Positions 6,001-8,587 of a stretch of DNA of 8,587 nt are shown in pieces. Made by a program: the position numbers. How positions within the stretch are numbered: position 1 is the stretch's first letter; each line of letters starts with the position of its first letter. Source of the DNA: a virus (taxonomy: Duplodnaviria > Heunggongvirae > Uroviricota > Caudoviricetes); the IMG/VR virus record IMGVR_UViG_2548876935_000013, positions 1 to 8,587 of that record; one strand, given 5' to 3'.

Positions 6001-8587
6001 CGCCAATTCCGCCAAGCATTTGCATCACGCCATTAATTCCGACATGAACCTCGGTTGTGTAACGGTCTTGCCCTGACTGGTCTTTCCACTTTCTGGTTCT
6101 CAGCATTCCCTCGAAATAAATCTGATCACCTTTTTTCACATACTGCCCCACAACCTCAGCCAGTTTCCCGGATACAGCAACACGATGCCATTCAGTCAAT
6201 TCCTTTTGCTCGCCAGTATTTTTATCTCGCCATTGTTCTGACGTGGCTATTGTCAGGTTAGCGAACGCTGTACCTGATGGTGAGTATCGAACTTCCGGGT
6301 CTTGTCCTACCCGACCAAGGATAATCACCTTATTTACGCCTCTGCTTGCCATTTATGCCGCCTGTTTTAGTTCGTTAACTCTGATGTTCATTACCTGAAC
6401 GCATTTAGCCTGCGCCTCCTCATTGCCAGCCATTAATTGCCAGTCACGCTGATAACGCTCGATGAGTTTTTTCTTGTCAGTTTCTGTTGACGCATAATCG
6501 CTGAAGTCTTTCAGGATTTGTTCGCAGTCAACCGATGGAGATTTCTGGTTGGTATTTTCTGGTGATGGTTTGTTATCTGATGCTGGGATTGCCCATCCCG
6601 GCAGCGATGGAGGAAGCCAGTAAAATCCTGTTCCATCCTTCAGTTTTGCCCTGTGCCACCCCTGCTTTTTATCGAGAGATGTTTGTGCGAAACCTTCCTC
6701 AAGGTTATACAGATACCGACCGATTCCCCACTGAACGGCAGCACGCTTCATTGCACCGGAACGACCACCTTTTACGGCTTCTACCTGCGTGTTTTCAGCA
6801 GCATCCCATTTGGTTACCCATTCGGAATCAATCCTGATTGATATGCCGCATTCAACGCCTCCGTTGTTGGGAATATCGCGGTATTCATTGCGCCATCCTG
6901 CTTTGCCGCAAACATCGTCCAGGCGTTTCATGATTGCCCTGTTCGTGACATAAGCCAGCACCATAGCCCACACCTTGCCATCGCGTGTTTTACCGCTTTG
7001 CTGTATTCGCCATTCGATATCTTCAGGGCAGAATGGCTCATCGAATTTGTTCAAATCCATAATTCACCTCAGAATGGACACGGCCCAAGGAAATAACGCT
7101 GATTTAATACTTCAGTCTTTGCCGCATTTAAAAATACGCGAACACCTTCACGATCTCCCTTCTGGCGATACATTAACGCCTGCTGCGTGTACATGCGTCT
7201 CTGTAACTTGCTCTCCTTCACTGTGGTTGCAAGTGACATGAATATCTCCTTCGTTACCGATTAAATCTTTCATCTGACGAATGAATTCTTCGTCTGACCA
7301 GTTATCTGTAAAACTCATTTCCTGCGATACCACGGAAGGTTGATAGCTGATTTCATCGCTTTATTTGCTTCAAGCCACATTTTGGAATCACCAATAAATC
7401 GGGCTATTACTGCTTTGTTCTGTGCAGCACGAAGCATCTGGTGATTAATGGCTATTTCATTGCGCATAACGCCTCCAGTTGTTTCTTTGCTGCTCTGATT
7501 AATTGTTTAACTCGGCGTGATAATTCAGATTCGTGCGGGTAGAAAGCGGACATGACGCCGCTACCCGCGAGCTGAAAGTGCATCATGGGTAACTCCTTAT
7601 ATTTGATTGCATAACGAAAACGCCTCGAGTGAAGCGTTATTGGTATGCGGTAAAGCCGCGCTTAGGCGGCTGATGTTTCTTCTTTCAGGCTTTCGAGATA
7701 TTTACGTGGGTCGTCGTAACATTGGCATTCGCTGTACCAATCCACCCAGCGATCAGTAAGCCCCATCTCTGATAAATCTTCATCGGTAAGGCTCTCATCC
7801 CACATCTCAAGGCCGTTAGCATTGCAGTAATCAGGCTTGATGTTGTTGTCATACTGAAAGGCGTCATAATCAGCCAGTGCGTCCATCAGACGAACACCCT
7901 CTTCAACACTTGCCACTTCTACAATGAACGGCTTCATAGGTACTTGCGGGATATGCCAGACACGTAATTTCATATATCCTCCGTCAAAAAAATTGCCCTC
8001 ACACTGGAGGGCAAAGAAGATTTCCAATAATCAGAACAAGTCGGCTCCTGTTTAGTTACGAGCGACATTGCTCCGTGTATTCACTCGTTGGAATGAATAC
8101 ACAGTGCTTATTCGTACTAATAAAATACCCAATTTTCTGTTTCTTGGTTGTGTCCAAAGTTATATTCAATATCTGGTGTTGATGTATCAATATTCTTCAT
8201 ACCATCAACAAGAGTTGATACAACAGCCAAATCTTGTTTGATTCTCATTAAATGGTATTCCTTCCGGCGCAATAAACTTTCAATGGCAAGTTTCTTCGTT
8301 GGGAATGCAAAAGATCTTTCTGCATTTTTTGCTACTTTCTTAATTGCATATCTATTTCTCCTTTGTTTCCATTCCTGTAACCACTGATTTGGTGCTGGTT
8401 TAAAATTAACAATCCAATGCGCAGGAACCAACCATGCATAATGCTCTGTCTGATGAAAAGCTATATATTGAAGTGCGAATATTTTTATCCCATCTTCTTC
8501 AACTGTCGCCTGGAATCTCCAGAAAACAGGCATTCCATCATGTTCAGTTTCTGATTCAGGAAAAGGTACGCTCCATGATTTTGTCAT

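Follow-up and report, generated by a model that had tools for sequence, protein, structure and literature searches.

An orthologue of phage P22 gene 17 in the PL operon of an Escherichia coli prophage: a likely counter-defence gene under the name of an exclusion gene

The window, that is, the whole stretch of 8,587 nucleotides that was analysed, takes in the left arm of an E. coli lambdoid prophage, with all the phage genes on the minus strand. The host flank is represented by a gene for a LacY-family sugar permease (1-1248, plus strand; Pfam LacY_symp, E=3e-193). Between this gene and the first phage ORF (1777-1977), neither a tRNA gene nor an ORF with a family match was found, and the prophage-host junction probably lies within this interval, 1249-1776; an integrase gene is absent from the window. 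Just upstream of an antirepressor gene of the AntA/P22AR type (2246-2869), positions 2909-2997 of the minus strand match the Rfam family sRNA-Xcc1 (RF02221) over its full length, with 69.3 bits against a gathering score of 53. Residues 106-204 of an Ead/Ea22-like protein (4191-4844, minus strand) match the PADLOC entry 'DpdH' with E=8e-37, and DUF551 domain-containing proteins are annotated by RefSeq in related E. coli prophage regions.

The gene studied here occupies 7662-7973 on the minus strand and encodes 103 amino acids and a stop, with the ATG at 7973-7971 and the stop codon at 7664-7662. A GGAGG ribosome-binding site (7978-7982, minus strand), which is also conserved in P22, is located 4 nt 5' of the ATG. 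The protein contains 23 Asp and Glu residues, nine Lys and Arg residues, 12 aromatic residues (four Trp, six Tyr, and two Phe) and three Cys residues. Its pI is 4.14 and its net charge approximately -14 at pH 7, the highest acidity among the 17 minus-strand ORFs tabulated.

Directly 5' of this gene lies a predicted intrinsic terminator (7986-8014, minus strand), composed of a UUGCCCUC-CAGUGU-GAGGGCAA stem-loop followed by U7. The terminator scan placed its 8-bp stem, which includes five G-C pairs, at 8014-7993 and the U7 at 7992-7986; the folding energy is -13.2 kcal/mol (z = -2.05). P22 carries a hairpin of -15.3 kcal/mol at the same position, where the stem sequence is another one but the pairing is kept. 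An earlier note on this DNA had given the same counts of acidic and basic residues, had remarked on interspersed aromatic residues, and had placed the gene first after a terminator. The recount agreed with the counts exactly, and the hairpin with its U7 directly upstream on the same strand makes the placement correct. The note had also put the product among the earliest proteins expressed, and here the analysis departs from it. In lambdoid phages, the genes past the first PL terminators require the N/gp24 antiterminator. The gene belongs to such a PL operon and has a terminator inside the operon in front of it, so that, by established lambdoid biology, it would depend on this antitermination and would be a delayed-early gene instead. 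A consensus scan found no sigma-70-like site on the minus strand from 8587 to 7973, including the stretch between the terminator and the start codon, although a scan of this kind is no proof that promoters are absent. In P22, gene 24, ral, orf78, and orf87 precede gene 17.

A second hairpin (7654-7671, minus strand; -10.4 kcal/mol) spans the stop codon and is homologous to the terminator at the 3' end of P22 gene 17. The region is conserved between window positions 7648-7671 and P22 positions 4304-4324, the latter being annotated 'terminator'. The T-run in the window is 6 nt shorter than that in P22, as seen from a gap in the alignment, so the hairpin is probably a weaker terminator in the window than in P22. 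A further terminator-like hairpin in the interval between the gene and cIII (7619-7638, minus strand; -9.9 kcal/mol, z = -2.8) may compensate for this. The next genes downstream, all on the minus strand, are cIII (7452-7586; Pfam PF08134, E=2e-30) and kil (7315-7467; Pfam PF06301 Lambda_Kil, E=1.7e-20), followed by two small ORFs and the genes for a Rad52/22-type annealing protein, an SSB, and the anti-RecBCD protein Abc2. The last three belong to a mosaic recombination module (5361-7060, minus strand), in which the Abc2 is of the P22 type. The two small ORFs, 7069-7239 and 7148-7333, overlap by 92 nt in different frames and give near full-length matches to phrog_1723 and phrog_2123, respectively, both labelled 'recombinase'; together (7069-7333) they sit where P22 has arf, just before the annealing-protein gene.

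The window and P22 share the order of hairpin, ribosome-binding site, gene 17, stop-codon hairpin, cIII, and kil, and the PL operon in the window is P22-like apart from its recombination module, which has been exchanged. The gene upstream in the same operon is an ORF of 156 aa (8117-8587, minus strand), which matches phrog_1636 over its full length (E=1e-111) and has no match in Pfam, NCBIfam, or PADLOC. With a G+C content of 36%, against 42-50% in its neighbours, it looks like a horizontally acquired accessory gene. The same linkage is found in E. coli 2013C-3342, where lambda Gam, Bet, and Exo adjoin a block that consists of the 156-aa ORF, a gp17 gene identical to the window copy, cIII, and kil.

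The protein encoded at 7662-7973 matches the Pfam family PF17420 'GP17', titled 'superinfection exclusion gene product 17', along the full length of the model (profile positions 1-98 of 98; 186.8 bits against a cut-off of 25, E=7.3e-56), and phrog_1510 with 194.5 bits (E=5.7e-58). No other Pfam family was matched, and NCBIfam and PADLOC gave no match. P22 gp17 and the window protein, both of 103 aa, align without gaps and are identical at 91 of the 103 positions (88%). The two genes share 87% nucleotide identity with a dN/dS of 0.125, and the window gene is under purifying selection. A chance reading frame at 7662-7973 is ruled out by the HMM scores, the ribosome-binding site, and the dN/dS. 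By tblastn against phage genomes, a 100% identical copy of the protein was found in the Stx1a-converting phage Stx1a_EH2115. Of 5426 complete E. coli genomes, 135 have the gene, under the annotation 'superinfection exclusion protein'. On these sequence comparisons, we take the window gene to be orthologous to gene 17 of phage P22 and to be its counterpart in an E. coli prophage. The earlier note had recognised no family; PF17420 and phrog_1510 both describe it and NCBI already names the gene, which, being known and annotated, adds little as a finding in itself.

The family is large. A word-indexed search returned 246 homologues, with PF17420 present in all 120 of those listed, and a profile search of 1.84 billion cluster representatives returned 1195 at E<=1e-3, of which 777 reached E<=1e-10; at 50% identity, the family comprises approximately 1,200 clusters. 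Nearly all of the best 150 cluster representatives listed are standalone proteins of 80-200 aa. Longer members are fused only to small uncharacterised phage domains, namely the N4 Gp49/Sf6 gene 66 family and DUF6166, apart from one representative in which a match to the RNA polymerase alpha C-terminal domain stands beside the GP17 domain below threshold (23.0 bits against a cut-off of 23.8). The fused representatives P0155, P0174, and P0144 may be genuinely fused or may result from the merging of gene calls. Among strictly virulent phages, homologues are common and include those of N4 (gp18), Kuttervirus, Klebsiella and Serratia myophages, and Bacillus phage SBSphiC, and in uncultured phages they are found among the small early genes.

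Acidity is a family-wide trait. The net charge of 61 homologues ranges from -8 to -18 and their pI from 4.05 to 4.40, and of 149 family representatives, whose median charge is -12, 98% have a negative net charge. The core motif of the family is W6, P9-Q10-x-P12, F16-x-V-x-V20, L33-A-x-Y36-D37-x-F39-Q40, K46-P-D-Y-x-N51, and W76-x-x-W79. Across the 149 representatives, 27 positions reach at least 70% conservation, and the window protein agrees with the consensus at each of them. The alignment of 61 sequences has 13 invariant columns. Strict conservation falls on residues that are for the most part aromatic or polar (Trp6, Pro9, Gln10, Pro12, Phe16, Leu33, Tyr36, Asp37, Phe39, Gln40, Lys46, Asp48, Tyr49, Asn51, Trp76, and Trp79), and the most acidic stretch of the protein, residues 58-75 with seven Asp and Glu, is its variable, indel-prone part. 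The copy in Bacillus phage SBSphiC, with approximately 41% identity, keeps the core motif.

AlphaFold2 with the 61-sequence alignment gave a model of the window protein of high confidence (mean pLDDT 91.8, pTM 0.80). The predicted fold is a compact beta-beta-alpha-beta-alpha-beta-alpha domain. Foldseek found nothing significant for this model in the PDB, the top match being an ERH fold with E=0.68, and the search of a viral structure library returned only members of the gp17 family. The sequence search of the PDB gave only noise (PPR repeats, E=0.15), and the family profile had no hit there. Among the structure matches listed for the model, none showed a likeness to Ocr, ArdA, Ugi, Arn, Gam, or the Tad or Acb sponges.

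The function of the family is indicated by P22. The P22 RefSeq record carries the note 'allows growth on phage Fels2 lysogen' for gene 17, and the literature states that P22 depends on gp17 to overcome exclusion by the Fels-2 prophage. Because P22 needs gene 17 on Fels-2 lysogens, the gene counters exclusion and its name misleads: 'superinfection exclusion protein' is a misnomer in the databases for a protein whose recorded P22 phenotype is escape from exclusion. This phenotype comes from the annotation of P22 and the literature, and is known for P22 only. The primary source cited for it is the work of Semerjian, Malloy and Poteete in J Mol Biol in 1989. By analogy with P22 gp17, the role of the window protein is likely to be counter-defence against prophage-borne exclusion or abortive infection. 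The earlier note had proposed an anti-defence factor from the acidic composition; the proposal gains its support through orthology with a protein of recorded Fels-2 phenotype, and not from composition. The distribution of the family, in virulent phages and among early genes, fits counter-defence or takeover and not exclusion expressed from a prophage. Since the standard name is the opposite of the recorded phenotype, surveys built on annotation file this counter-defence gene under defence. No mechanism for gp17, which represents a large and well-conserved family, was found in the literature searched, 35 years after the genetics.

The following mechanism is the most likely one. In the lytic cycle, the leftward early (PL) operon would yield a small, soluble, strongly acidic cytoplasmic protein, whose expression would be delayed-early because the phage antiterminator must first let transcription cross the hairpin upstream of the gene. 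The protein would then free the infecting or induced phage from the abortive-infection or exclusion system of a resident prophage, which in the case of P22 is the P2-like Fels-2. We infer that gp17 may bind a defence effector or sensor stoichiometrically through a conserved aromatic and polar patch, putatively formed by Gln10, Tyr36, Asp37, Gln40, Lys46, Asp48, Tyr49, Asn51, Trp76, and Trp79, with the negative charge helping.

A candidate target can be named in Fels-2, whose genome (NC_010463) was annotated here. STM2723.1 (22639-24336, minus strand), a protein of 565 aa annotated as hypothetical, is encoded in a variable region beside the portal gene and matches the PADLOC AbiU model over its full length (E=3e-112) as well as Pfam AIPR (E=9e-43); it is predicted to be a full-length AbiU/AIPR abortive-infection protein. 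The adjoining gene, STM2726 (24604-25335), has no family match, and STM2723.1 is the only recognisable defence gene of Fels-2. AbiU is a recurrent cargo of the hotspots of P2-like phages. The Fels-2 exclusion determinant was not identified in the literature searched, which also held no link of gp17 to AbiU. STM2723.1 would be the likeliest target of gp17 in Fels-2, but AbiU as the target is an association only, and we put it forward tentatively. It is likewise rather doubtful, at about the same level, that the GP17 family as a whole is a widespread and structurally new inhibitor of AbiU/AIPR-type abortive-infection proteins that acts through the aromatic and polar patch. If it were so, this would explain why phages both temperate and virulent, with hosts ranging from Enterobacteria to Bacillus, have retained the family, and 'superinfection exclusion protein' would be a systematic mis-annotation. 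The AbiU/AIPR gene in Fels-2 makes a concrete and cheap experiment possible.

Other modes of action were weighed against the same evidence. The conserved Tyr36, Asp37, Gln40, Lys46, Asp48, Tyr49, Asn51, Trp76, and Trp79 are aromatic and polar, as in nucleotide-binding pockets, and the high conservation among phages of Gram-negative and Gram-positive hosts suggests an invariant ligand. Both observations would suit a sponge, or else a small enzyme, directed against a small-molecule or nucleotide signal of a defence system, which it would capture or destroy in the manner of Tad1, Tad2, or Acb2, with another fold. However, among the matches listed for the model there is no structural similarity to any solved sponge, and the only recognisable defence gene of Fels-2 is of the AbiU/AIPR type, which is not known to use a signalling molecule; we consider such an activity unlikely.

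The net charge of approximately -14 on a small protein, and its conservation throughout the family, recall the DNA mimics. Like Ocr or ArdA, gp17 would then imitate the DNA backbone with its acidic surface and sequester DNA-binding defence enzymes, those of restriction-modification and BREX among them. Known mimics share no single fold, so the absence of structural matches leaves DNA mimicry unsupported rather than refuted. Nevertheless, in the searches made, gp17 has no sequence or fold relation to Ocr, ArdA, or any other solved mimic, and in P22 restriction alleviation belongs to another gene of the operon, ral, so that anti-restriction by mimicry appears improbable.

A similarly low probability is assigned to a general host-takeover factor that binds some conserved protein of the host, such as one of the nucleoid or of the transcription machinery, with the Fels-2 phenotype as an indirect effect. 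The spread of the family over many phage genera, and its presence in clusters of early genes, agree with such a role, as does the RNA polymerase alpha C-terminal domain beside GP17 in one representative, but this single fusion is isolated and below threshold. Moreover, in the classical description, gene 17 is needed only on Fels-2 lysogens and is therefore dispensable on hosts free of Fels-2, which argues against a general function.

A true superinfection-exclusion protein, made by the prophage and blocking incoming phages, is what the Pfam title, the PHROG category, and the NCBI pipeline name, but it is very improbable, as the P22 note and the literature give the opposite role, the gene lies behind a terminator in a repressed PL operon where the scan found no promoter-like site, members of the family are frequent in virulent phages, which form no lysogens, and the window protein, with a top 19-residue Kyte-Doolittle mean of 1.02 and an overall hydropathy of -0.59, has no membrane segment, unlike proteins of the SieA, Imm, or Cor types.

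The reading that we prefer, counter-defence against a prophage-borne exclusion or abortive-infection system, can be compared with several known systems. Surt of Vibrio phage 1.217.O is a validated anti-AbiU protein (bioRxiv 10.1101/2024.06.14.598830). It would have its target class in common with gp17 if gp17 acts on the AbiU-like protein of Fels-2, but Surt has 195 aa and no detectable similarity to gp17 (BLASTP E=0.39). N4 gp18 and the 'gp17-like' proteins of Kuttervirus (Vi01-like) belong to the same family, with 54-65% identity over approximately 95% of the length, but they are encoded by strictly virulent phages, outside lambdoid operons, and no phenotype was found for them in the literature searched. 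T7 Ocr and ArdA, which disarm host defence, resemble gp17 as small, strongly acidic early proteins encoded by phages or plasmids; however, they are elongated, largely helical dimers and have no sequence or structural similarity to gp17. The closest counterpart is gene 17 of P22 itself, which the window gene resembles in its place within the PL operon, with a hairpin upstream and cIII-kil downstream, in its acidic composition, and in the core residues of the family. The two differ in host, which is Salmonella for P22 and E. coli for the window copy, and in the recombination module that accompanies them, which comprises Arf, Erf, Abc1, and Abc2 in P22 and a Rad52-like protein, an SSB, and Abc2 in the mosaic prophage of the window.
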